IMG/VR virus record: IMGVR_UViG_3300010409_000003
DNA length: 64,000 nt
Source: a virus
Taxonomy: Duplodnaviria > Heunggongvirae > Uroviricota > Caudoviricetes
Strand: one strand, 5' to 3'
In this document: positions 20,526 to 29,344 of the stretch, one piece after another
How positions within the stretch are numbered: the first letter of the stretch is position 1
How the letters are laid out: each line of letters begins with the position of its first letter
The notes under the pieces: generated by a model
Databases searched by the model: none
Told to the model about the DNA's origin: nothing
Seen by the model: only the letters and a program-made list of their open reading frames with translations
Translations under genes and position numbers: made by a program

Positions 20526-20832
20526 AATCTGGTATATAGTGTTCAGCTATAAATTTATATACTGCCAACACTCTACAGTTTTCTTCTACGTATCCATCTT
20601 TACCTTCAACACTAACTTTATGAGTTGCCTGTTCGTCTTCACCTTCTATATATTCTACATTAAGGTTGTAACGTCTAATAAATGCATCACACATATAAGG
20701 CTTAATACAAGCACCTATACGTTCTAGTATGTGATGGTATGTACTTATCTCAAAACTATTAAGCTCTCTGTGTAGAGTGTGTATATAGTGGTTAGCTTCT
20801 GCTTGGTTAACTAGTTTGTTCATTAGATACAC
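20494..20832 (-). CDS. hypothetical protein (paralog of 22522..22830)
   Basis: 112 aa. Shares the N-terminal QAEAN.Y motif and a C-terminal VY.F.A.H motif with the 22522 ORF. Confidence 0.45.
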   Translation of the reverse strand: MYLMNKLVNQAEANHYIHTLHRELNSFEISTYHHILERIGACIKPYMCDAFIRRYNLNVEYIEGEDEQATHKVSVEGKDGYVEENCRVLAVYKFIAEHYIPDFDKGEDNDST

Positions 20833-21941
20833 TCACTATTTAATTTATCTAAGTAATACTGTCTAGCTAAGTCAGAGACCTTCTTACCTACATCTTTCAT
20901 TGTTAACTTAGACTCTTCTAGGGTATCTCCCTCTTCTTTATTTATATCACGATTAACCCAACCAATATAATTACCTATGTTTTTCTGGTCTAACCCTACT
21001 TCATCAACACCTTGTTGTAACCTATTATCAGTCACAGCGTAATCTACAAAAGATTTAATACTATTTAATTTCTCAGGACATACAGCAGCTACAGATTTAA
21101 CTTTAGATACTGAGTGCTTCTTACCTTTAGTCTTAAACCAATTACCACTGTCATAGTAGTACTCTTGTGATAAAGGTGTCCACACTAAACCTTCTCCTAA
21201 GAGTTGCCCCACACCTTCTCCATCTTTTAGGTTTAGTGCTTTGGATACAGGGCAACAGTTTTCTACTTCTTCTGTCAAGCCAACTAGCTTATTTTGAGAA
21301 TACTCAGGTTTGTTAAAGTCTATATTTAATTCTTGATATGGAAAATCTGTAATAGCGTATATACCTGCTTCCTGTGTTAATTCACAAGTTAACTTAGAGC
21401 AAAGTAAAGTATTTAACCAACCTGTTTTATCATCTTGATTAGTCTCTCCTGACTTGATACCAAATATGAAGAATGCCTTATTAGGTAGATAAGAAATACC
21501 TACACCTTTCTGAATACCTTGTCCACACCATTCACCTGAAATCTTAATAGGGAATTTCACATCCCCATAGGATTCCTTAATTTCTTTGTAAGCTCTGTCT
21601 AATATAACTTTGACGTTATCTAGTTTACGAATCATAGATTGTGCAAATTCAGCATTATCTTTATGTACCATTGAGTTATCAAATTCATCTACTTCAGCTA
21701 GTAAATTATTCTTACTATGAAAGGTAATACTCATATCTTCATGTAAAATAATACTCCCATTAGTCCCATGTAACTTAGTTGTACCTATGTAAGTCACTGT
21801 AGGTGCTTTTTTAGATAAGTCAAAAATAGGTTTCTGTGTTACTTCATCATACCCTATATAACGAGAAGAATGTCGTATATTCTTAACTACGTTACGAAAT
21901 TGACCTGTACTATGAAATTTAATATTTTTATCTGTCATCAT
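20823..21941 (-). CDS. RNA ligase, Rnl2-like nucleotidyltransferase
   Basis: 372 aa. IGTTKLHGTNGS matches the Rnl2-family motif I KxHGTN (lysine adenylation site). Downstream EGLVWTP is motif-IV-like. Confidence 0.6.
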   Translation of the reverse strand: MMTDKNIKFHSTGQFRNVVKNIRHSSRYIGYDEVTQKPIFDLSKKAPTVTYIGTTKLHGTNGSIILHEDMSITFHSKNNLLAEVDEFDNSMVHKDNAEFAQSMIRKLDNVKVILDRAYKEIKESYGDVKFPIKISGEWCGQGIQKGVGISYLPNKAFFIFGIKSGETNQDDKTGWLNTLLCSKLTCELTQEAGIYAITDFPYQELNIDFNKPEYSQNKLVGLTEEVENCCPVSKALNLKDGEGVGQLLGEGLVWTPLSQEYYYDSGNWFKTKGKKHSVSKVKSVAAVCPEKLNSIKSFVDYAVTDNRLQQGVDEVGLDQKNIGNYIGWVNRDINKEEGDTLEESKLTMKDVGKKVSDLARQYYLDKLNSECI

Positions 21942-21978: not shown

Positions 21979-22209
21979 CTATCGACGAGAACTGCTTTCA
22001 TCTTTCTCTGTTTGAATCCCTTTATAGAACGCCTCTTTAATCGCGTAAGAGAAAAGCTTTCTCATATTATCTATTTCGGCACATATTCTTTGGTCTGGCT
22101 CATTCAATGCTTGATATTTTATTTTTACGCATAAATCTCGCATTTTATCAAATTGGTCTTTATCCATCACAGGGTTATATTTAACCTCTACCGATCTGTT
22201 GATTTCCAT
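21979..22209 (-). CDS. hypothetical protein
   Basis: 76-aa ORF. Confidence 0.4.
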   Translation of the reverse strand: MEINRSVEVKYNPVMDKDQFDKMRDLCVKIKYQALNEPDQRICAEIDNMRKLFSYAIKEAFYKGIQTEKDESSSRR

Positions 22210-22216
22210 AATTACC

Positions 22217-22522
22217 TCACTTATATTTATTGTAAACTAACTTAGTAAAACATCTGTGTCCTTCAATTCTTTCTACCTCACTAAAACCTAATGCAGTTAG
22301 CATCTTATGTCCTTCTGACCAGTACGTTGACTCTTCCTGTGAGCATAAATATAGAGCTTTCACATATATACTTAGATTACGTTCACCTAGTTGATTCAAA
22401 TCTTCATCAGGTATCTTGTAAAGTTCATAGCTACGTAGAATACGGTTAAGTTGTACGGGCAGTATAACTATCCCATATGTAAGGCATCTTTTTATTAAGC
22501 ATGGTAAGTCATTCTCTGTCAT
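22217..22522 (-). CDS. hypothetical protein
   Basis: 101-aa ORF. Confidence 0.45.
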   Translation of the reverse strand: MTENDLPCLIKRCLTYGIVILPVQLNRILRSYELYKIPDEDLNQLGERNLSIYVKALYLCSQEESTYWSEGHKMLTALGFSEVERIEGHRCFTKLVYNKYK

Positions 22523-22830
22523 TATAATTCTTCCTTACAGTGAGTAGCAACAAATTCATAAACTGTTTGCTCTAAACACTCACCAATTATAATCTCACCT
22601 ACCCTACTTACCACAATTTTCCCTGTGTTTTCACAGTGGTTTATATTTAGTTTATATTCTTCTATAAAGGTTAACACTCTAGTGAATTCTGTATTGTTTA
22701 CTAGAGTTCCATTTAGTATATCATCATAGACACCTTTATAGAAACCTTCTACCTTACAACCTACTTTCTTTTTACAATATACATAATAGTTAGCTTCTGC
22801 TTGTCTAATTGTGTTACTTACATCTGTCAT
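22522..22830 (-). CDS. hypothetical protein (paralog of 20494..20832)
   Basis: 102 aa. The conserved SD context TAAATTAAAGGAGAATAAATG is shared with 21941 and 36866. Confidence 0.45.
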   Translation of the reverse strand: MTDVSNTIRQAEANYYVYCKKKVGCKVEGFYKGVYDDILNGTLVNNTEFTRVLTFIEEYKLNINHCENTGKIVVSRVGEIIIGECLEQTVYEFVATHCKEEL

Positions 22831-22941
22831 TATTTATTCTCCTTTAATTTATTAAGTGTAGCTACTATACAGGCCTTCAAAACAGAAGTCAACACTTAAT
22901 TAGCCAAATTAAGCTAATTATTTAATATTAGCCATAATAGG

Positions 22942-23298
22942 CTAACAACAATTATCTTTATACCACTTATCAACATTAGTACTAACTATTTCGTGTGAAC
23001 ATACATTGGCTACTACATCAGCATCAACCCCTCCATAGTAGTCTTTGTAATATGATATTTCTATGTTAATTACAGTTTTGTAAACTAAACCCCCTTTATA
23101 GTCAGTGTCGTAAGACTGTATATCACTAAAAGCCTCTAGGGTTAAATAACAATTTACATCATCACTAAAGTCATAAGTAGTCTTTGGTTTATATTGTATT
23201 TCTATTTGTAAATCCTCTAAGCTCTCGTCATCTAACTTATGATGCCAGAGTATAAAACTAAACTCATAAGTATCAGTTTCGTTATTATTATTAAACAT
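22942..23298 (-). CDS. hypothetical protein
   Basis: 118-aa ORF. Confidence 0.45.
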   Translation of the reverse strand: MFNNNNETDTYEFSFILWHHKLDDESLEDLQIEIQYKPKTTYDFSDDVNCYLTLEAFSDIQSYDTDYKGGLVYKTVINIEISYYKDYYGGVDADVVANVCSHEIVSTNVDKWYKDNCC

Positions 23299-23311
23299 TG
23301 TTTACCTCCTG

Positions 23312-23590
23312 CTAAAACAATTCTGGATTAGTCTTCATTACAGCCTCTTTCAAACCTGCTATACCACATAATGAAAACCCTGTACTTCCATCCCAATCTT
23401 TAAACCACCTGTCATACCTAATATCAAACTTATATCCATGTTCCTCTTGTAGTTGCTTTAATTCAGCAGCCCAAGCATCCCACTGACCATCATTGATAAC
23501 TGTATGCCCTAATATGTAATAAATATAGCTATGATGTGCTAACATTATCCTAAGTTGTTGTACTCTTTCGGTTATAGGTTTAGTTACCAT
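23312..23590 (-). CDS. small protein resembling domain Ia (N-terminal NAD/NMN-binding helical domain) of NAD-dependent DNA ligase LigA
   Basis: 92 aa. ITERVQQLRIMLAHHSYIYYILGHTVINDGQWDAWAAELKQLQEEHG parallels LigA [49 protein letters not shown]. No adenylation domain follows. Confidence 0.4.
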   Translation of the reverse strand: MVTKPITERVQQLRIMLAHHSYIYYILGHTVINDGQWDAWAAELKQLQEEHGYKFDIRYDRWFKDWDGSTGFSLCGIAGLKEAVMKTNPELF

Positions 23591-23888
23591 TTAAAGCTTC
23601 CTCTAAAGCCTTTTTAAAATAAAATCTACTGTTATTATACTTTAATTCAAATTGGTAACTACCATCACCTTCTTTAGTGGCAGTAAATACGTCATCATTA
23701 ATGTACAAGTGTTCTTTCTCTATAGTGTAAACATAACCGTCTACGGCTACAACATTAGGACAATGAGTGTCAAAATAGTCAGTAATATCCTCTATCAAAC
23801 TCCTGTAGTAATCATTAATATCAATATAATCTTCTATTGTTTTACCTGTAGGTATTAATTTACCTTTAACGTGTTCTATGTTATTCAT
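23580..23888 (-). CDS. hypothetical protein (tandem paralog of 24081..24401)
   Basis: 102 aa. H(V/I)(K/R)GKL(I/R)PTGKTIE(D/E)Y and C-terminal ALEEAL are shared with the 24081 ORF. Confidence 0.5.
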   Translation of the reverse strand: MNNIEHVKGKLIPTGKTIEDYIDINDYYRSLIEDITDYFDTHCPNVVAVDGYVYTIEKEHLYINDDVFTATKEGDGSYQFELKYNNSRFYFKKALEEALNGN

Positions 23889-23907
23889 TAGTAGTCTCCT
23901 TTATTTG

Positions 23908-24099
23908 TTATAACTCATTATCAATAAAATAGTCAAGTAATTCTTCTAAATCTTCAGATTCTTCACTAGTCATGCTACCTTGCTCAATTAGGTATAGTAC
24001 AAACAAAGTAGCACCTTGTACTTTTAAACTTTTATCTCTAACTTCTCTGTTACAAGTAGTGCCGCAACATATTTCATCAATCATGTACACTCCTTGCAA
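23908..24099 (-). CDS. hypothetical protein
   Basis: 63-aa ORF between the two paralogs. Confidence 0.35.
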   Translation of the reverse strand: MQGVYMIDEICCGTTCNREVRDKSLKVQGATLFVLYLIEQGSMTSEESEDLEELLDYFIDNEL

Positions 24100-24401
24100 T
24101 TTTCTAGTGCTTCTTCTAATGCTTCCTCAAAACCACAACCTCCATTGTAATATTTAATTTCAAAGGTATAACTTCCGTCCTCTCCTTTAATAGAATTAAA
24201 TATATCCCCATAAGGTTCTATATTTTCACTTACTATAGTGTAAACTAACCCCTCAACTTCTGTAGCAACTCTATAAAAGTTTTCTCTAAAGTACTCATCT
24301 ATAGTACTATATGGGTAAGATAATTCAATATCCCCTACATACTCTTCTATAGTTTTACCCGTAGGTCTTAATTTACCTCTGATATGCTCTACTTCACTCA
24401 T
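24081..24401 (-). CDS. hypothetical protein (tandem paralog of 23580..23888)
   Basis: 106-aa ORF. Confidence 0.5.
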   Translation of the reverse strand: MSEVEHIRGKLRPTGKTIEEYVGDIELSYPYSTIDEYFRENFYRVATEVEGLVYTIVSENIEPYGDIFNSIKGEDGSYTFEIKYYNGGCGFEEALEEALENCKECT

Positions 24402-24404
24402 AAC

Positions 24405-25637
24405 CTACTCCTCCAAAATTTCATAAAATTTCTGTACTTCTTTCTTAATAATAATATTACGCTTAGTTATCTTCCTAACCACACGTAATCGTCTTAAATC
24501 TCTTAATCTAGATAATGCCACATATAATTGCCCATGTCCAAAACAACCTTTGCCAATATCCAAAGCAACATCGTCTAGTGTGGCTCCTTGTACTTTATGT
24601 ATTGTAGTGGCGTACCCTAACATCAGAGGTACTTGTGTAAATGTAGCTGTTGTTTTCTTAGACACACCTACTATAGCTTTCTGGTATTTAAAAGATTCCC
24701 ATTTGTGTTCTTCAACTTCAACTACACCTCCTTTATCTAATTGTACCTTAACTGGGTATGAGGTATCTAGTACAACTCCTGTGGAGCCATTTACATAGCC
24801 ATCACCATTAGCACATATAACAACTCTACACCCTACTTTAATATTAAGGGATGCTTCTACAGGAGGTTGTGGGAACTCAGAGGCTTTACCGTCAATAGTA
24901 GCTTCGTAAGTGTGTTCTCTTCCTTCTAGTTTAGAATACCAATAGTTATTAATCCTGTTAGTATCTTTCTTAAATGTACAAATATGTAGTATATTATTAT
25001 CATTAGAGCTATAAGGTAAAGATTCTTCTTGTATCAAGTTAAGAGCTTTCATTGCCTTATCTGTACCTCTTCTGATTGCATTAAGCATAGCTACTTGACG
25101 TTTATCATCTTGTCTCCATACTTTCTTTAATTGTACAACTTCGAAGTCCCAACAATTAGATTTAAAACAGAATGGACTATCGTAGTAATCATAATATAAA
25201 TCTTCTTCCTCTTGTGTAACTACAGGTTCAATTTGAAAGAAGTCACCTAGTACAATTACTTGTAGTCCCCCGAATGGCAATGTATTACCTTTAACAAGTT
25301 GTAACTTAGTGTCAATCAAGTCTAAAGTATCAGCACGACACATCCCTATTTCATCAAGTACCACCTTAGTAGGTGGATTGTTACCTTTGAATAAGTTAGC
25401 TAAGTTAACGCTAACACTTTCACAATCCTTAGCTGTGGGAAAACCATGTGGTAATCCAAATAGAGCATGAAATGTCATACCACCTATATTTAAAGCTGCC
25501 GCACCTGTTGGCGCTGCTAATAGTGTTCTATCATCTACAATTTCTTTAATGAAAGTTGACTTACCTGTTCCACCACCTCCAAGAATACATACATTCTCTC
25601 CTGCTGCAACTAGTTCTTTAGCTATTTCGATTGACAT
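24405..25637 (-). CDS. SF1B DNA helicase, Dda/RecD/Pif1-like
   Basis: 410 aa. Walker A ILGGGGTGKST, APTGAAALNIGGMTFHALFGL and C-terminal ATTIHKVQGATLDDVAL are the Dda/RecD-type helicase motifs. Confidence 0.75.
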   Translation of the reverse strand: MSIEIAKELVAAGENVCILGGGGTGKSTFIKEIVDDRTLLAAPTGAAALNIGGMTFHALFGLPHGFPTAKDCESVSVNLANLFKGNNPPTKVVLDEIGMCRADTLDLIDTKLQLVKGNTLPFGGLQVIVLGDFFQIEPVVTQEEEDLYYDYYDSPFCFKSNCWDFEVVQLKKVWRQDDKRQVAMLNAIRRGTDKAMKALNLIQEESLPYSSNDNNILHICTFKKDTNRINNYWYSKLEGREHTYEATIDGKASEFPQPPVEASLNIKVGCRVVICANGDGYVNGSTGVVLDTSYPVKVQLDKGGVVEVEEHKWESFKYQKAIVGVSKKTTATFTQVPLMLGYATTIHKVQGATLDDVALDIGKGCFGHGQLYVALSRLRDLRRLRVVRKITKRNIIIKKEVQKFYEILEE

Positions 25638-25646
25638 TAGTTCTCC

Positions 25647-25820
25647 TTATTCTACGTTAAAGCTTAAAGCTGTGATGCATAGTTCTAACTTTTGTGTACC
25701 ATTAATAGCTTCCATTTGAGTTAACTTACCATAAGATGTACTGCTATATTTATTAATAAAATCTAGGAAAGCTTTTTCTATCTCCCCTTCACTTAACGTA
25801 ACCCTACTTTGTATTTCCAT
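25647..25820 (-). CDS. hypothetical small protein (about 57 aa)
   Basis: Manual find on the minus strand: MEIQSRVTLSEGEIEKAF... It fills the gap between the helicase and the 25820 ORF. Coordinates are approximate. Confidence 0.25.
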   Translation of the reverse strand: MEIQSRVTLSEGEIEKAFLDFINKYSSTSYGKLTQMEAINGTQKLELCITALSFNVE

Positions 25821-26116
25821 TACTCACTCTCCTCTACTATTTCCCATGTAACACCTAAAGCTTCTAACATCGCACCTACATAAGTATTTACTTCTTCATA
25901 ATCATCTAAGTGTTCTGGTATATGATAACCTAAATAATCATAAATCTCAATAGGTATATCATTTATATCAGATACACTACCAGATTGCTTGGCTATAGAT
26001 TCATCTTCAAAGTTATAGTATGTGTAATCTTGATTATCACAGCAGTCGCACCCAATATTGTACCAAGCTGAATGTTCATATAATCTAAAATGTTTAATCA
26101 TTATTGTTCTCCTCAA
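25820..26116 (-). CDS. hypothetical protein
   Basis: 98-aa ORF. Confidence 0.45.
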   Translation of the reverse strand: MRRTIMIKHFRLYEHSAWYNIGCDCCDNQDYTYYNFEDESIAKQSGSVSDINDIPIEIYDYLGYHIPEHLDDYEEVNTYVGAMLEALGVTWEIVEESE

Positions 26117-26229
26117 AGTTTAGTATTAGCTTTTCAATCATTACATTAAGCTGTGAATAAGGTAGTTCACCTTTATTATATAAGTCAATATAGTCTTGTA
26201 TTGTCATTGTAAACTACCTCTTATTTAGA

Positions 26230-26511
26230 TTACTTAACTAACCAAGTTAATTTCTTAATAGTTACAGGTTCTAATTTAACTTCACTACCTGTACGCTCTA
26301 AAATACCTTTGTTATTAAATTTAACACGTTTAATATTGTGCTCTGCTATCATACCTTTGATATCATTTTCTACAATCAAAGATTGAATAGTAATTGCATT
26401 ATCATCACTAGTTACTATGCCCTTAAATTCTGCTACCACTGATTCTTCAGTAGGTAAATTAGTATCTTGGTCTAGTAAGTAAAAGTCTTGTACTGTAATT
26501 GTGTTGCTCAT
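26230..26511 (-). CDS. hypothetical protein
   Basis: 93-aa ORF. Confidence 0.45.
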   Translation of the reverse strand: MSNTITVQDFYLLDQDTNLPTEESVVAEFKGIVTSDDNAITIQSLIVENDIKGMIAEHNIKRVKFNNKGILERTGSEVKLEPVTIKKLTWLVK

Positions 26512-26530
26512 AATTATTCTCCTATTTAGT

Positions 26531-27610
26531 TTAAATTAAGTTTTCTAGTGTAGTTAACATTTCTTGGTAAGCCCCTGCCAAGTCAGCATTCATATTGTAT
26601 TCATTAGTTTCAAAGAAGTCAACAAGAATATCCATAGGTTTTACATTATTTATGTAATCACTAGGTTGTTTGTAGTTGTCAGCTTGACGTATAACCGCTA
26701 TTAATGACTCATTACTAATGTACTTAGCTTTATAACCTGAGCGAATAACCTCATGATATTCATCGTGGTCGTCTGTAACTATAGTATCTTCTTCTAAGTC
26801 TTCGTACACTTTAGCTATTGCCTTATTAGCTAATTCTTTACTAGGTGTGTTATAGTCTCCTAGATAAGTAGTATCATTGTTATTACTAGTTAAAGCTGAG
26901 ACTACTATATCCAAATTCTCATCTTCATTAACATACTTCCATAATTCTTTAGTTTGCCATGATATATCGAAAGTGCTTACTGTTTTTCTATCTCTATCTA
27001 ATTTAAGCACATCAGTGTTGAAGTTATAACCATAGTCAAAGGTCTTATCCTCACATACCCACACTCCTCCACAGAATATCTGACCTTTCATATTAGAGTC
27101 TTTAAGTATATCACCATTCGGTGTTTCTATTAAGTCTAGGTTATCATGGAAGCATAAGTTTTTAGCTCTAACTTCTTCTATCACATCCTCAGAGAGCTTA
27201 CTTAACTCAAAGAGAACTTCATTGTCATATTCATCTTCATATTTTTCTATACTTAAATGTAAACAATCTATACCAAAAATCTGTGAGGTGGCTATATAAG
27301 GTGTCCACATATCATTACCATTAAATATATTACAATTTGTATTCTCTCTTGCAAGTATCAACAATGCTAATTTCAAACCTTCGTTGAATTGTCCTATCGT
27401 ATCTGTATCTTCTGTCTTACTACCACTGCCTAATAGTAAGTGCTCAATTGGTATAGCACCACTAGTAGTTAAGATACTTAGTGTGTCACCTTGGATAGTA
27501 ACCTTAGCACTCCCTGTATCCAATGCATTTGCAATTAGTTCTCTTATAGCATCTACTATTGTCCACTGTGGTACATAGTTTTTTGCTAATGATAATTCTA
27601 TAGTTCTCAT
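26531..27610 (-). CDS. GHKL-superfamily ATPase-like protein (Bergerat fold, Hsp90/MutL/MORC-like N-terminal domain)
   Basis: 359 aa. AIRELIANALDTGS is an N-box (E-x3-N-x2-D). IGQFNEGLKLA resembles the Hsp90/MutL G2-box region IGQFGVGFYS. The C-terminal half is unassigned. Confidence 0.5.
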   Translation of the reverse strand: MRTIELSLAKNYVPQWTIVDAIRELIANALDTGSAKVTIQGDTLSILTTSGAIPIEHLLLGSGSKTEDTDTIGQFNEGLKLALLILARENTNCNIFNGNDMWTPYIATSQIFGIDCLHLSIEKYEDEYDNEVLFELSKLSEDVIEEVRAKNLCFHDNLDLIETPNGDILKDSNMKGQIFCGGVWVCEDKTFDYGYNFNTDVLKLDRDRKTVSTFDISWQTKELWKYVNEDENLDIVVSALTSNNNDTTYLGDYNTPSKELANKAIAKVYEDLEEDTIVTDDHDEYHEVIRSGYKAKYISNESLIAVIRQADNYKQPSDYINNVKPMDILVDFFETNEYNMNADLAGAYQEMLTTLENLI

Positions 27611-28443
27611 TCTTTACCTCCTAAATAAACTGCCACAACTTCTTCAACTTTCTTTCTACCACCACCGTCACATGAGATAGTTCTTTGAACTTCAAAAGTA
27701 TACAACTCATCTGCATCTTTGTAAAGCTCTTTTGTGAAATCTGTCCAATGATTACTAATAATAGATGTATGTTTACTATTTTTAGATAATTCTTTCAACT
27801 TAATGTGGTCTTCTTTATTAAAACCTTTAACTGAATATTTAAATTCTGTGGTCAAAGGTACATATGGCGAGTCAGAATATATAAGACAGTTATCTAATTC
27901 TTCGACATGTTCAAATACTTCCTCGTAACTCTTACACATTAAAGCTGTGTTATTCTTATGTCGTTTATGTAATAAGTTGATACTGTCTGTGGGTATGTTA
28001 GGTAAATTCTTTTTAACATTCCCTATTGGTACATTGAATTCACCTTTTAGATTATACCTAGCCAACCCATTGTACCCAAATTTATTAAGATATTGAAATA
28101 TAGCACATTTAGTAAGAGTTCCGAGGTCTTCTTGATTAAAAGACCTACGTAACTCATAGTAATCATTATACCCACTATTAAAAAGTACCTTACAAATATT
28201 TATATAGTGTGACACGTCCTCTGTTTTGACTAAAAGTTTGTAGGTATTAATTAAGTCTTCATTTATATCATTCCAAATGTACTTATCTGTGTCAAAGTTT
28301 AGTGATATATTAGCTGCACCTATAAACGGCTCTACTAAGGTTCTCTGCTTATGTTTCTCTAATATAGGTAATACATGTTTTAGTGCCTTACCTTTGCCTC
28401 CTGCCCATTTGAATAAGCTCTTATTATATTTAGTGTTAGTCAT
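27607..28443 (-). CDS. dam: DNA adenine methyltransferase (Dam-like, N6-adenine, D12 class)
   Basis: 278 aa. N-terminal LFKWAGGKGK (SAM-binding motif) and catalytic DPPY-type motif SDSPY. It overlaps the upstream GHKL gene by 4 nt. Confidence 0.8.
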   Translation of the reverse strand: MTNTKYNKSLFKWAGGKGKALKHVLPILEKHKQRTLVEPFIGAANISLNFDTDKYIWNDINEDLINTYKLLVKTEDVSHYINICKVLFNSGYNDYYELRRSFNQEDLGTLTKCAIFQYLNKFGYNGLARYNLKGEFNVPIGNVKKNLPNIPTDSINLLHKRHKNNTALMCKSYEEVFEHVEELDNCLIYSDSPYVPLTTEFKYSVKGFNKEDHIKLKELSKNSKHTSIISNHWTDFTKELYKDADELYTFEVQRTISCDGGGRKKVEEVVAVYLGGKE

Positions 28444-28642
28444 TAACTGTCTCCTTTAATTTATCAATTATCTTAATATCACATATTACATCTCTAACGC
28501 CTAAAGTAAGTCCGTTATTTAGTACTACAGGTCTCATACCGGCGTCTTCACATTCTTTAACTGCATCTATAGTTTCTTTCCTAGTCATATCAGAGCAGCC
28601 TGTCAGTAATATACATGTAATTATTAATAATATTTTAATCAT
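28436..28642 (-). CDS. small lipoprotein
   Basis: 68 aa. Signal peptide MIKILLIITCILLTGCSD with an LTGC lipobox. Confidence 0.5.
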   Translation of the reverse strand: MIKILLIITCILLTGCSDMTRKETIDAVKECEDAGMRPVVLNNGLTLGVRDVICDIKIIDKLKETVND

Positions 28643-28647
28643 TTGTG

Positions 28648-28869
28648 TTAACCTCCTTTAATATACGTTAAATCTTCAACCTTAGCATCACGCCAAGTAG
28701 TTATAATCTTATTTTCATCCCAACTAGGGGGTGCTAAGTCGTCCCCGTTATGGTCTATATAAGCACCTAGTTTACTTTCTTCACCTATTTGCAATACTAG
28801 TACGCTAGTCCTAAATAAACGTTTATGTTCTCTGTACCTAGCTTTACCTGTTAAAATAGTATCACTCAT
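28648..28869 (-). CDS. hypothetical protein
   Basis: 73-aa ORF. Confidence 0.4.
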   Translation of the reverse strand: MSDTILTGKARYREHKRLFRTSVLVLQIGEESKLGAYIDHNGDDLAPPSWDENKIITTWRDAKVEDLTYIKGG

Positions 28870-29344
28870 AAGTACTCCTTATACCTAATTCTTCTTCTAC
28901 CTTACACCAAACGTCTGCTCTATCTTGTGGTTTATAACAATATACTAAGTAGCTACCAAGGCTTCTAGTAACTTCGTACTTAAATAAATCCCACTCATAT
29001 TTACCCTTCCAATGGTACAGTAGCAGATCTCTAGCAATACTCCAAGCTTTTAATTCTTTAGCAAATAAGTACTCTAATTTACCTTCATCTTCATCATTAC
29101 CAAACACACTACCAATATCCAACAAATGTCCTATCTCATGTGCAAGAACTATGTACCAACTCTTATGGTATCTAGGCGATAGTGACATATGTATAGTACA
29201 TCTACTTGACCCTATTATAGGTTCTTTTATACTATTATGGTACTCATAATAGTGTCTAAATTGACAGAAATCTTTAAATGTTAATCTAACTCCATATTTA
29301 AACTTAAAGCTTTGTTTGTAGAAGAACCATAATTTACTTAACAT
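28862..29344 (-). CDS. putative zinc metallopeptidase (HExxH)
   Basis: 160 aa with VLAHEIGHLLD (HExxH motif). Confidence 0.5.
   Translation of the reverse strand: MLSKLWFFYKQSFKFKYGVRLTFKDFCQFRHYYEYHNSIKEPIIGSSRCTIHMSLSPRYHKSWYIVLAHEIGHLLDIGSVFGNDEDEGKLEYLFAKELKAWSIARDLLLYHWKGKYEWDLFKYEVTRSLGSYLVYCYKPQDRADVWCKVEEELGIRSTYE

Follow-up and report, generated by a model that had tools for sequence, protein, structure and literature searches.

The stretch analysed here (the window) is a 64,000-nt contig of a Caudoviricetes virus, IMG/VR record IMGVR_UViG_3300010409_000003. On its minus strand, a gene for a Dam-family methyltransferase runs into a gene for a 359-aa GHKL-like protein, which is followed by a short ORF. 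The features of the locus are as follows:

27607..28443, minus strand: gene for a Dam-family (D12 class) N6-adenine DNA methyltransferase of 278 aa, the upstream member of the pair
26531..27610, minus strand: gene for the 359-aa GHKL-like protein, the downstream member of the pair
27607..27610, minus strand: ATGA overlap, read from the sequence, in which the dam TGA (27609-27607) lies within ATG-A and the GHKL-like ATG occupies 27610-27608
27617..27622, minus strand: Shine-Dalgarno AGGAGG of the GHKL-like gene, read from the sequence, 6 nt before the ATG and within the 3' end of dam
27197..27610, minus strand: GHKL (Bergerat-fold) domain, residues ~1-138, with N box E24/N28/D31, degenerate G1 box (T48) and G2 box G73-Q-F-N-E-G78
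26981..27196, minus strand: second alpha+beta domain, residues ~139-210, matching the transducer/S5-like domain of GHKL ATPases
26531..26980, minus strand: C-terminal, mostly helical domain, residues ~211-359 plus the stop codon, with no recognisable fold or family
26230..26511, minus strand: 93-aa ORF immediately downstream of the GHKL-like gene, a better-conserved neighbour than dam

The initial annotation delimited both ORFs of the pair correctly and recognised their overlap, but took the GHKL-like gene as the first and dam as the second. Both genes lie on the minus strand, and therefore dam is upstream; the overlap is between the dam TGA and the GHKL-like ATG, not between the GHKL-like stop codon and the start of dam. 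Co-transcription of the two genes is almost certain, because the junction leaves no space for a promoter or terminator. Pattern scans for promoters and terminators across 23.5-31.5 kb gave match counts equal to those of shuffled controls, that is, at chance level. The proposal that the two are translationally coupled is not supported: the AGGAGG site permits independent initiation, so the overlap alone is no proof of obligatory coupling, stop/start overlaps occur at 12 of the 24 same-strand junctions called on this contig, as part of an operon, and the overlap is not conserved in any relative. As evidence of a functional pair, it is uninformative. No restriction-enzyme-like neighbour of dam was seen, and a megablast search of the locus against GenBank phages returned no match.

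The product of the upstream gene can be assigned with confidence to the Dam family from its profile and structure matches. It matches Pfam PF02086 over its full length (E 2.7e-44, 152 bits, cutoff 22), TIGR00571 dam (191 bits, cutoff 114.85) and the PADLOC orphan MTase model (E 3e-69), aligns end-to-end with E. coli Dam structures (E 6e-48) and is collinear with E. coli Dam and phage orphan Dams over the entire protein. Its 194 bits against the NCBIfam equivalog for E. coli Dam fall under the cutoff of 441. The previous description of a canonical Dam is right about the family but too strict in its adjective: motif IV reads DSPY, with Ser in place of the first Pro of the consensus (D/N/S)PP(Y/F/W), whereas E. 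coli Dam has DPPY; the AdoMet motif differs as well, FIGAA standing for the FVGAG of E. coli Dam. Because DSPY is kept in all five Dams of this phage lineage, the variant is probably functional, though non-canonical. The residues K9, Y119, N120, L122, R124 and P134, which we take to be those that contact GATC and the flipped base in E. coli Dam, are identical in the alignment of the window Dam. GATC sites are strongly avoided in the window (33 observed versus 152 expected). The alignment with E. coli Dam and this avoidance suggest that the enzyme methylates GATC. Most likely, this orphan Dam would methylate GATC on the phage DNA and so blunt host restriction, a role with which the GATC avoidance agrees.

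The protein encoded downstream combines a GHKL (Bergerat) fold with a second, transducer-like domain, an arrangement known from MutL, MORC, Hsp90 and type II topoisomerases. The alpha/beta sandwich ATP-binding fold is present, and ~200-215 of its 359 residues align with most two-domain GHKL plus transducer modules. The earlier call of a GHKL-type ATPase is borne out as far as the fold and the N box are concerned, but the G1 box is absent and the G2 box has Asn in place of its middle Gly. The N box (ELIANALD) carries E24, N28 and D31 as had been described, and is near-invariant, being conserved in 80-81 of 82 phage proteins and in all 75 aligned cellular proteins. The G1 box (DxGxG) has degenerated to T48-T-S-G-A, with T48 at the position of the adenine-binding Asp; this position is S, N or T in 82 of 82 distinct phage proteins and D in 75 of 75 aligned cellular proteins. 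In the G2 box (G73-Q-F-N76-E-G78), the outer glycines are invariant and the middle residue is Asn in the sub-lineage of the window protein, versus Gly in 75 of the 82 phage proteins. A lid-like loop (residues 60-76) has low pLDDT in the predicted structure and appears disordered. The second domain ends in an invariant LDRDRK motif, and one of its arginines, R206 or R208, may correspond to the conserved basic finger residue of the transducer domain. The N box, the G2 box, K80, R88, R206 and R208 are retained in both phage and cellular clades. With the catalytic Glu and the Mg-binding Asn kept, the protein could still be an NTPase.

The C-terminal part, first put at about 200 aa, is indeed unassigned, although it is shorter (~150 aa, residues ~211-359). 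The helical domain matches none of the solved structures in the PDB, and neither a Toprim, nuclease or DNA-binding domain nor a MutL-like C-terminal domain is detectable in this region. The MutL C-terminal dimerisation/endonuclease domain, the MORC-specific motif and the CW and coiled-coil parts are all absent from the protein. Searches of local Pfam with the whole protein gave no significant HATPase match and did not return PF25856, the only hit being a sub-threshold DUF1266; NCBIfam gave only a sub-threshold match resembling the sacsin ATP-binding region (E 0.037), and single-sequence searches of the PDB and PADLOC gave nothing significant. MutL, MORC and paraMORC are GHKL+S5 ATPases of repair and R-M systems with intact ATP-binding motifs (PMC2292703). 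The window protein shares with them the succession of GHKL and S5/transducer domains and the conserved basic residue (R206 and R208 being invariant), but it lacks ATP-binding motif II, the conserved helicase/endonuclease/methylase neighbourhood and the C-terminal domain of MutL, and its sequence identity to them is ~10-15%.

The protein belongs to PHROG 6077 (E 4.3e-87, residues 1-355 against positions 1-360 of 366 in the profile), and PF25856 (MPN635_N) is the precomputed assignment of an identical protein. A homologue is carried by 114 GenBank phages of Vibrio, Pseudomonas, Pectobacterium, Escherichia and others, with a patchy distribution among unrelated phages; examples are Pseudomonas phage PaMx11 gp71, vB_PaeS_PAO1_Ab18 ORF34 and Vibrio phage 11895-B1 VPHG_00065. 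Homology with these PHROG 6077/PF25856 phage proteins is full-length (28-33% identity over 94-100% of the length), and they share with the window protein a length of ~360 aa, the invariant residues and the loss of the G1 Asp. Across the phage clade, the catalytic Glu, the Mg-binding Asn, the G2 lid motif and the two second-domain arginines are preserved, and DxGxG has been lost uniformly. Within it, the window protein falls into a small divergent sub-lineage with five metagenomic relatives (47-73% identity), set apart by T at the G1 position (S or N in others) and N in the middle of the G2 box (G in others).

A cellular family of 467-480-aa proteins, annotated 'ATP-binding protein' (PF25856), is homologous in the GHKL domain, the second domain and part of the helical region. 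Its N box, G2 box, K80, R88 and R-x-R are identical to those of the phage protein, at an overall identity of ~25-30%, but it has an intact DxGxG ('RDFGRGL') and an additional C-terminal HExxH domain (DUF6782-like), both missing in the phage clade. A 160-aa HExxH ORF upstream in the window (28862-29344) was considered as a split-off form of this peptidase domain and rejected (BLASTP E 0.1). Across phyla of bacteria and archaea, the cellular relatives share 54-60% identity, which points to mobility; the 80 best cellular matches listed come from Acidobacteria, Alphaproteobacteria (e.g. Sphingomonadaceae) and archaea. Their genomic contexts are variable and island-like, beside LmuB-like SMC ATPases, PDC-S06 and RmuC, with paired Endonuc_Holl genes and recombinases as further neighbours. 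The cellular protein matched no PADLOC model. The literature search returned nothing relevant on MPN635, nor anything linking GHKL proteins with phage anti-defense or Lamassu.

The initial annotation had proposed that a MutL- or MORC-like ATPase and Dam form a DNA-marking or DNA-remodelling device. As a coupled module, the ATPase would read or use GATC methylation for remodelling or marking, evasion of mismatch repair or restriction, or timing of replication or packaging. The ATGA overlap, the shared orientation and the GHKL+S5-type architecture, as in MutL and MORC, speak for such a module, and MORC and paraMORC families do occur in R-M operons with methylases, albeit rarely adenine methylases (PMC2292703). 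Also in line with it, a co-oriented Dam lies upstream within 3 kb of the GHKL-like gene in five of the six members of this lineage, which may reflect a loose functional link inside the lineage; the sixth member (L092) has no Dam within 4.8 kb of the gene. We surveyed ~90 related phage loci (of 298 IMG/VR loci and 114 GenBank phages), with counts to be read qualitatively, and a D12 methylase was found within 5 kb in only six of them, the window's locus included (4 of the first 85, again including the window's own). Another 80 viral loci and four GenBank phages were devoid of any co-oriented D12 methylase within 5 kb; the four phages, 11895-B1, PaMx11, Pluto and 277E43-1, have none beside the GHKL-like gene. 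Among the cellular loci of the 80 best matches listed, none (0/80) contained a D12 methylase.

Direct abutment with dam was seen only in the window, unlike in the other PHROG 6077 phages. No ORF intervenes between the two genes in the window, and 1, 1, 6 and 10 ORFs do so in the four closest relatives with a D12 methylase; in the 73%- and 64%-identical relatives, the genes are parted by an ORF of 72 or 68 aa. Neighbour clustering of 85 phage loci or 80 cellular loci revealed no partner conserved across the family, and an R-M neighbourhood (SF-II helicase, endonuclease, methylase) of the MutL/MORC/paraMORC type was not found around the gene. The top neighbour 'cluster' of the phage loci was discarded, as it consisted of antisense ORFs within the GHKL-like gene itself. 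Genes for ligases, helicases or resolvases often lie close to the GHKL-like gene.

Of the genes around the GHKL-like gene, the 93-aa ORF is linked to it most consistently, lying 3' of it in all six lineage members. It also follows the gene in Vibrio phages 11895-B1 and 277E43-1 and in Shewanella phage 1/40, and is found 40-600 nt downstream in further Vibrio phages, according to the record coordinates. The 93-aa protein matches the C-terminal region of PHROG 17203 (E 2.8e-17), and its domain (p93) is also the C-terminal module of 188-730-aa proteins encoded without a nearby GHKL gene. Six proteins with the p93 domain had no matches in Pfam.

These data make it probable that dam and the GHKL-like gene are separate, independent accessory genes that share a long, compact leftward operon of the phage, and not the halves of a two-part device. 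The 4-nt overlap would then reflect synteny and the lack of the small ORFs that part the genes in relatives. The GHKL-like protein would be a dimerising switch or clamp that is gated by a ligand and uses nucleotides in a non-canonical way, and may cooperate with the 93-aa protein encoded just downstream. As for its role, context and structural neighbours lead us to give phage-host conflict close to an even chance, and DNA replication or recombination an appreciably smaller one. In a viral structure library, rIIA proteins make up most of the closest relatives outside its own family (E 1e-9 to 1e-6), with a resemblance limited to the N-terminal module. These structural relatives and the island-like contexts of the cellular relatives hint at a role in conflict.

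DNA is the classical substrate of GHKL+S5 modules, and the protein might be an accessory factor for DNA transactions unrelated to Dam, a clamp-like or topoisomerase/MutL-like protein serving phage replication, recombination or repair. We consider this unlikely, although it retains an appreciable chance: the gene has no conserved DNA-enzyme partner, the C-terminus contains no detectable Toprim, nuclease or DNA-binding domain, the distribution is patchy as for an accessory gene and the adenine-binding residue has been lost.

A role as a counter-defence decoy is distinctly improbable, though worth stating. In this reading, the phage protein would be an adenine-blind derivative, shortened by truncation, of the mobile cellular GHKL-metallopeptidase, which would act with SMC-like ABC ATPases in defence islands as a candidate defence system. 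Such a decoy would form heterodimers through its GHKL module, poisoning or sequestering the cellular protein, or would soak up a signalling ligand, possibly with the 93-aa protein as a partner. It would fit the larger size of the cellular proteins, with their DxGxG and HExxH domain, their mobility across phyla and their position adjoining LmuB-like, PDC-S06 or RmuC-type genes. In the phage clade, it is specifically the Asp and the peptidase domain that are gone, the N-terminal strap region and the remainder of the pocket being kept, and patchiness among unrelated phages is also consistent with a decoy. However, the cellular protein matches no PADLOC model; the LmuB matches, weak at E 1e-11 to 1e-22, could stem from similarity common to SMC proteins; Vibrio, Pseudomonas and enterobacteria, which host the phages, are not among the taxa of the 80 best cellular matches listed; and the identity between phage and cellular proteins is low.

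Very doubtful is a kinship with rIIA, by which the protein would be a short version of this membrane-associated safeguard against abortive-infection systems of prophages, composed of a GHKL module and a lineage-specific C-terminus. Besides most of the named viral-structure matches beyond its own family, the homologue of one GenBank phage is annotated as 'RIIA lysis inhibitor', and rIIA orthologues are described as GHKL followed by a highly variable C-terminus (PMC7824862). T4 rIIA and its relatives are likewise phage-encoded and have an N-terminal GHKL module with the stretch S-x-K...IG-x-F-G-x-G-x-K, and the hhalign alignment to T4 rIIA spans the N box through the G2 box. Its probability is only 27%, however, and no significant sequence-profile match links the two: no rIIA PHROG was matched (E<=0.01), compared with seven rIIA/rIIB-labelled PHROGs for T4 rIIA. 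The hhalign and PHROG tests led us to reject rIIA membership. T4 rIIA is also ~700 aa long, twice the length of the window protein, is paired with rIIB, no counterpart of which was seen adjacent to the gene, and keeps the DxGxG Asp ('CRDFGPGM') that the PHROG 6077 phage family lacks.

The Dam-GHKL module is the least probable reading of all, being largely contradicted by the comparative data, with the adjacency not kept in relatives as close as 73% and 64% identity and absent from more than 80 other phage loci and the 80 best cellular loci listed, a GHKL-like gene that has its own Shine-Dalgarno site in an operon where overlaps are the norm, the G1 Asp that MutL/MORC ATPases need missing, no MutL C-terminal dimerisation/endonuclease domain and no conserved helicase or endonuclease partner.

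A phage Dam-MutL/MORC device would, if true, have been a new coupling of DNA methylation to an ATP-driven DNA machine, but the evidence says otherwise. What remains of value for two independent accessory genes is a comparative pattern in an uncharacterised family of more than 100 sequenced phages: all phage members lack the adenine-binding Asp, whereas their cellular cousins have a full pocket and a metallopeptidase-like domain and occur in defence-island-like contexts. This pattern of Asp loss offers a handle on whether the phage protein is a pseudo-ATPase, an NTPase of altered specificity or a decoy, in a family that is carried by the cultured phages PaMx11, Ab18 and Vibrio phage 11895-B1.

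Two minus-strand ORFs occupy the interval 26531-28443 (ORF call on the window), with a third, p93, immediately downstream of the GHKL-like gene:

28443..27607, minus strand, methylase ORF (dam), 278 aa
27863-27874, minus strand, motif IV of Dam (residues 191-194), DSPY in place of DPPY
27610..26531, minus strand, GHKL-like ORF, 359 aa
26230-26511, minus strand, 93-aa ORF (p93)

The initial annotation described a GHKL-type ATPase gene upstream of, and coupled with, a canonical dam. All the motifs it cited in both genes were found in the sequence, but the order is reversed: as both genes are on the minus strand, dam is upstream and the GHKL-like gene downstream. The stop/start overlap exists, as an ATGA in which the ATG-A of the GHKL-like gene contains the dam TGA (27609-27607), and an AGGAGG (27622-27617) is located 6 nt before the latter's ATG. 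This start codon is well supported, given that GHKL-like homologues begin at the same point ('M.KIELSLA') in A1, a 55-sequence alignment of the family. Overlaps of 1–38 nt occur at 12 of the 24 consecutive same-strand junctions between genes called on the contig of the window itself, and an ATGA junction is therefore uninformative here. Like their neighbours, dam and the GHKL-like gene are surely transcribed together, but in an operon of some twenty-five phage genes this does not argue for joint function. Scans for promoter and terminator patterns returned counts at shuffle level.

The window belongs to a tailed phage, with large terminase, portal, tail sheath and baseplate genes on the plus strand from about 38 kb, and a long leftward block encoding a primase-helicase, an RNA ligase (20823-21941, minus strand; PF09414, PHROG 548), a PIF1/Dda-like helicase (24405-25637) and many small ORFs. 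The same block contains a separate 92-aa ORF matching the DNA ligase N-terminal domain (Nlig-Ia; region matching 6675-6953 of locus L001). Upstream of dam, a 68-aa ORF directly adjacent (28436-28642, minus strand) carries a lipoprotein-like signal (MIKILLIITCILLTGCS), and a 160-aa ORF (28862-29344, minus strand) has an HExxH motif (LAHEIGHLLD) and does not significantly resemble the HExxH domain found in cellular GHKL relatives (BLASTP E 0.1). The large terminase ORF (42692-45088, plus strand; 798 aa) has its core at the C-terminus (residues 325-790); because the N-terminal residues, about 325, match separate PHROGs (other terminase families, DNA primase and DnaC-like helicase loader), the protein may be a fusion or carry an additional P-loop-type domain at its N-terminus. 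An identical 359-aa protein is recorded from a 90.9-kb metagenomic contig and is also present on a 13.2-kb Logan contig, while megablast found no near-identity match of the locus among GenBank phages.

Profile matches and alignment identify the methylase as a full-length D12-class enzyme (PF02086, E 2.7e-44; PADLOC 'orphan methyltransferase', E 3e-69), with 191 bits for TIGR00571 'dam', whose cutoff is 114.85. It aligns collinearly with the sequences of E. coli Dam crystal structures (E 6e-48), and K9, Y119, N120, L122, R124 and P134 of E. coli Dam, which we take to be its DNA contacts, are identical in the same alignment; GATC is its predicted target. Dam-family membership thus stood, but 'canonical' did not, as motif IV is DSPY and the AdoMet motif is FIGAA. 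Both variants are kept in all five Dams of the phage lineage (window, L006, L007, L091 and L093; 59–74% identity), so DSPY is probably functional; an unrelated D12 enzyme in locus L021 carries DPPY. The window contains 33 GATC sites against 152 expected (O/E 0.22, maximal-order Markov estimate), with a GATC-free stretch from 22193 to 29026. This scarcity fits a phage under GATC-directed restriction pressure whose residual sites are also protected. Other low palindromes, with small counts, were CCGG (0.20), CGCG (0.24) and GGCC (0.46), the remaining 4-mer palindromes having O/E near 1. No restriction-enzyme-like gene was detected near dam in the ORF and Pfam survey of the window.

Association between dam and the GHKL-like gene was surveyed using iterated HMMs for D12 methylases on six-frame ORFs in the first 85 loci (80 IMG/VR loci, 4 GenBank phages and the contig of the window itself; ≤5 kb flank each). 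Only four contained one: the window, the close relatives L006 and L007, and L021, whose D12 methylase lies on the opposite strand, 3.3 kb from the GHKL-like gene. In the cultured phages Vibrio 11895-B1, Pseudomonas PaMx11, Luteibacter Pluto and Vibrio 277E43-1, the genome annotation shows no methylase less than 4 kb from the homologue, and none of 80 cellular loci of GHKL-like relatives contained a D12 methylase. Within the window's lineage, the two genes are syntenic in relatives but not abutting:

Metagenomic relatives of the window (identity to the window protein; separation of dam and the GHKL-like gene)
L091, 73%, one 72-aa ORF
L006, 64%, one 68-aa ORF
L007, 54%, six ORFs (1.6 kb)
L093, 47%, ten ORFs (2.9 kb)
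L092, 48%, no Dam within the 4.8 kb available upstream

Given this rarity, the separation in relatives and the commonness of overlaps, there is no support for the proposed joint DNA-marking or remodelling device. An orphan phage Dam adjoining a member of a catalogued phage GHKL-fold family is the best description of the locus.

No neighbour is conserved across the whole GHKL-like family, p93 coming closest. It follows the GHKL-like gene in 6/6 lineage members and in Vibrio phages 11895-B1 and 277E43-1 and Shewanella phage 1/40, and lies 40–600 nt downstream in Vibrio phages PS17B-2, PWH3a-P1, 501E54-1, 424E50-1, 1.121.O and 1.170.O (record coordinates). The module, about 90 aa, without a Pfam match and present also at L002, L005 and L094-L098, is mobile: in several phage groups it is a standalone ORF behind the GHKL-like gene, and it forms the C-terminus of 188–730-aa proteins in phages BUCT194, PVN02, CHOED and Vp_R1 (for example VPR_090 of Vibrio phage Vp_R1, PHROG 17203), near which the GHKL-like gene is absent. 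We regard p93 as a candidate partner of the GHKL-like protein, no more.

The 359-aa protein is a full-length member of PHROG 6077 (E 4.3e-87), and PF25856 (MPN635_N) is recorded for the identical sequence in the protein collection. As a single sequence it had no significant match in local Pfam, PDB sequences or PADLOC. In A1, W16, R23, E24, N28, D31, G78, K80, A82, R88, G166, R206 and R208 are invariant, and members weakly match HATPase_c_3 (15/55) or HATPase_c (6/55). The family profile matched only Hsp90, TRAP1 and GRP94 N-domains in the PDB (E about 0.05), aligning 'IRELxxNAxD' on the N box and 'IGQFGEG' on the G2 box. An AlphaFold model built from A1 was confident (pLDDT 90.7, pTM 0.81); only the loop at residues 60-76 was poorly defined, as an ATP lid typically is.

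Structural matches to the GHKL-like model
T6 topoisomerase II ATPase domain, 10.5, 214
ParE 43 kDa, 10.3, 215
Human Top2B, 10.1
TRAP1, 9.3
SMCHD1, 9.2
MORC2, 9.1
MutL, 8.4

The GHKL (Bergerat) call was thus right, and the matches extend into a second, transducer/S5-like domain ending at the invariant 'LDRDRK' motif.

The more specific likeness to MutL or MORC held for the fold and two-domain architecture only. MORCs and paraMORCs are defined by a GHKL domain whose ATP-binding motifs are intact, by an S5 domain supplying a basic residue and by conserved neighbourhoods with helicases, endonucleases and methylases (Iyer et al., PMC2292703). The window protein shares the two domains but lacks intact ATP-binding motifs, its family has no such conserved neighbourhood, and no MutL-type C-terminal domain was found in it; it should not be filed among these ATPases. 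In the viral structure library, the matches ranking behind the window protein's own family were mostly rIIA proteins (E 1e-9 to 1e-6); viral Hsp90 and topoisomerases ranked lower. Orthologues of rIIA have been described as joining an N-terminal GHKL domain to a C-terminus that varies greatly, within counter-defence systems that are poorly understood (PMC7824862). Membership of rIIA by sequence was rejected (hhalign probability 27%, no rIIA PHROG match), and T4 rIIA keeps the G1 Asp, unlike the phage family.

A profile search with the family retrieved >4,100 proteins, most of them 467–480-aa cellular 'ATP-binding proteins' (PF25856) whose G1 box, 'RDFGRGL', is intact and which carry an HExxH segment at the C-terminus. 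This cellular GHKL-HExxH family occupies 424 loci in a species-representative genome set and is 54–60% identical across Acidobacteria, Alphaproteobacteria, Chloroflexi, Bathyarchaeia, Nitrosopumilus and Nanoarchaeota, which implies that its genes have often been transferred horizontally. Gene neighbourhoods differ between loci. An SMC/Rad50-like ABC ATPase is often encoded upstream in the same orientation (7/10 tested, Pfam); of nine tested by PADLOC, six matched LmuB models weakly (E 1e-11 to 1e-22) and one the candidate system PDC-S06 (E 4e-159). Other neighbours are paired Endonuc_Holl genes, RmuC or a serine recombinase, and no PADLOC model matched the GHKL-HExxH protein itself. The family (L086-L088, L099-L178) is possibly a conflict system. 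Longer relatives, P0085-P0087 and P0089 (772–860 aa; L089), have a second GHKL-like segment after the MPN635_N-type module, and residues about 340-417 of P0085 match topoisomerase II and rIIA PHROGs.

In GHKL proteins the G1 Asp hydrogen-bonds adenine N6, and its mutation leaves gyrase B, MutL and Hsp90 unable to bind ATP. In the profile alignment, the TRAP1 G1 box 'DtGiGM' faces 'nkksaL' of the family consensus, and the window protein has T48 ('ILTTSGAI') at the Asp position. All collected homologues were aligned to the family HMM. Among 82 distinct phage-clade proteins this position is S in 41, N in 34 and T in 6, never D (1 unaligned), whereas it is D in all 75 aligned of 76 distinct cellular proteins; the two G1 glycines, invariant in cellular relatives, are not conserved in the phage clade. 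Both clades keep the N-box Glu/Asn/Asp, the outer G2 glycines, K80, R88, R206 and R208. The initial observation was thus real and its fold assignments right, but with the gene order reversed, the G1 box missing, a DSPY-variant Dam and no support for a device. Because the G1 Asp is missing, phage-clade proteins may either not be ATPases or use the pocket differently; retention of the catalytic Glu and Mg-binding Asn suggests a pocket still under selection. The most interesting outcome is the contrast at the adenine-binding Asp, lost throughout the phage clade but strictly kept by the mobile cellular relatives, which have a metallopeptidase-like domain. It supports, as a testable hypothesis of low probability, a decoy or altered-ligand role for the phage proteins.
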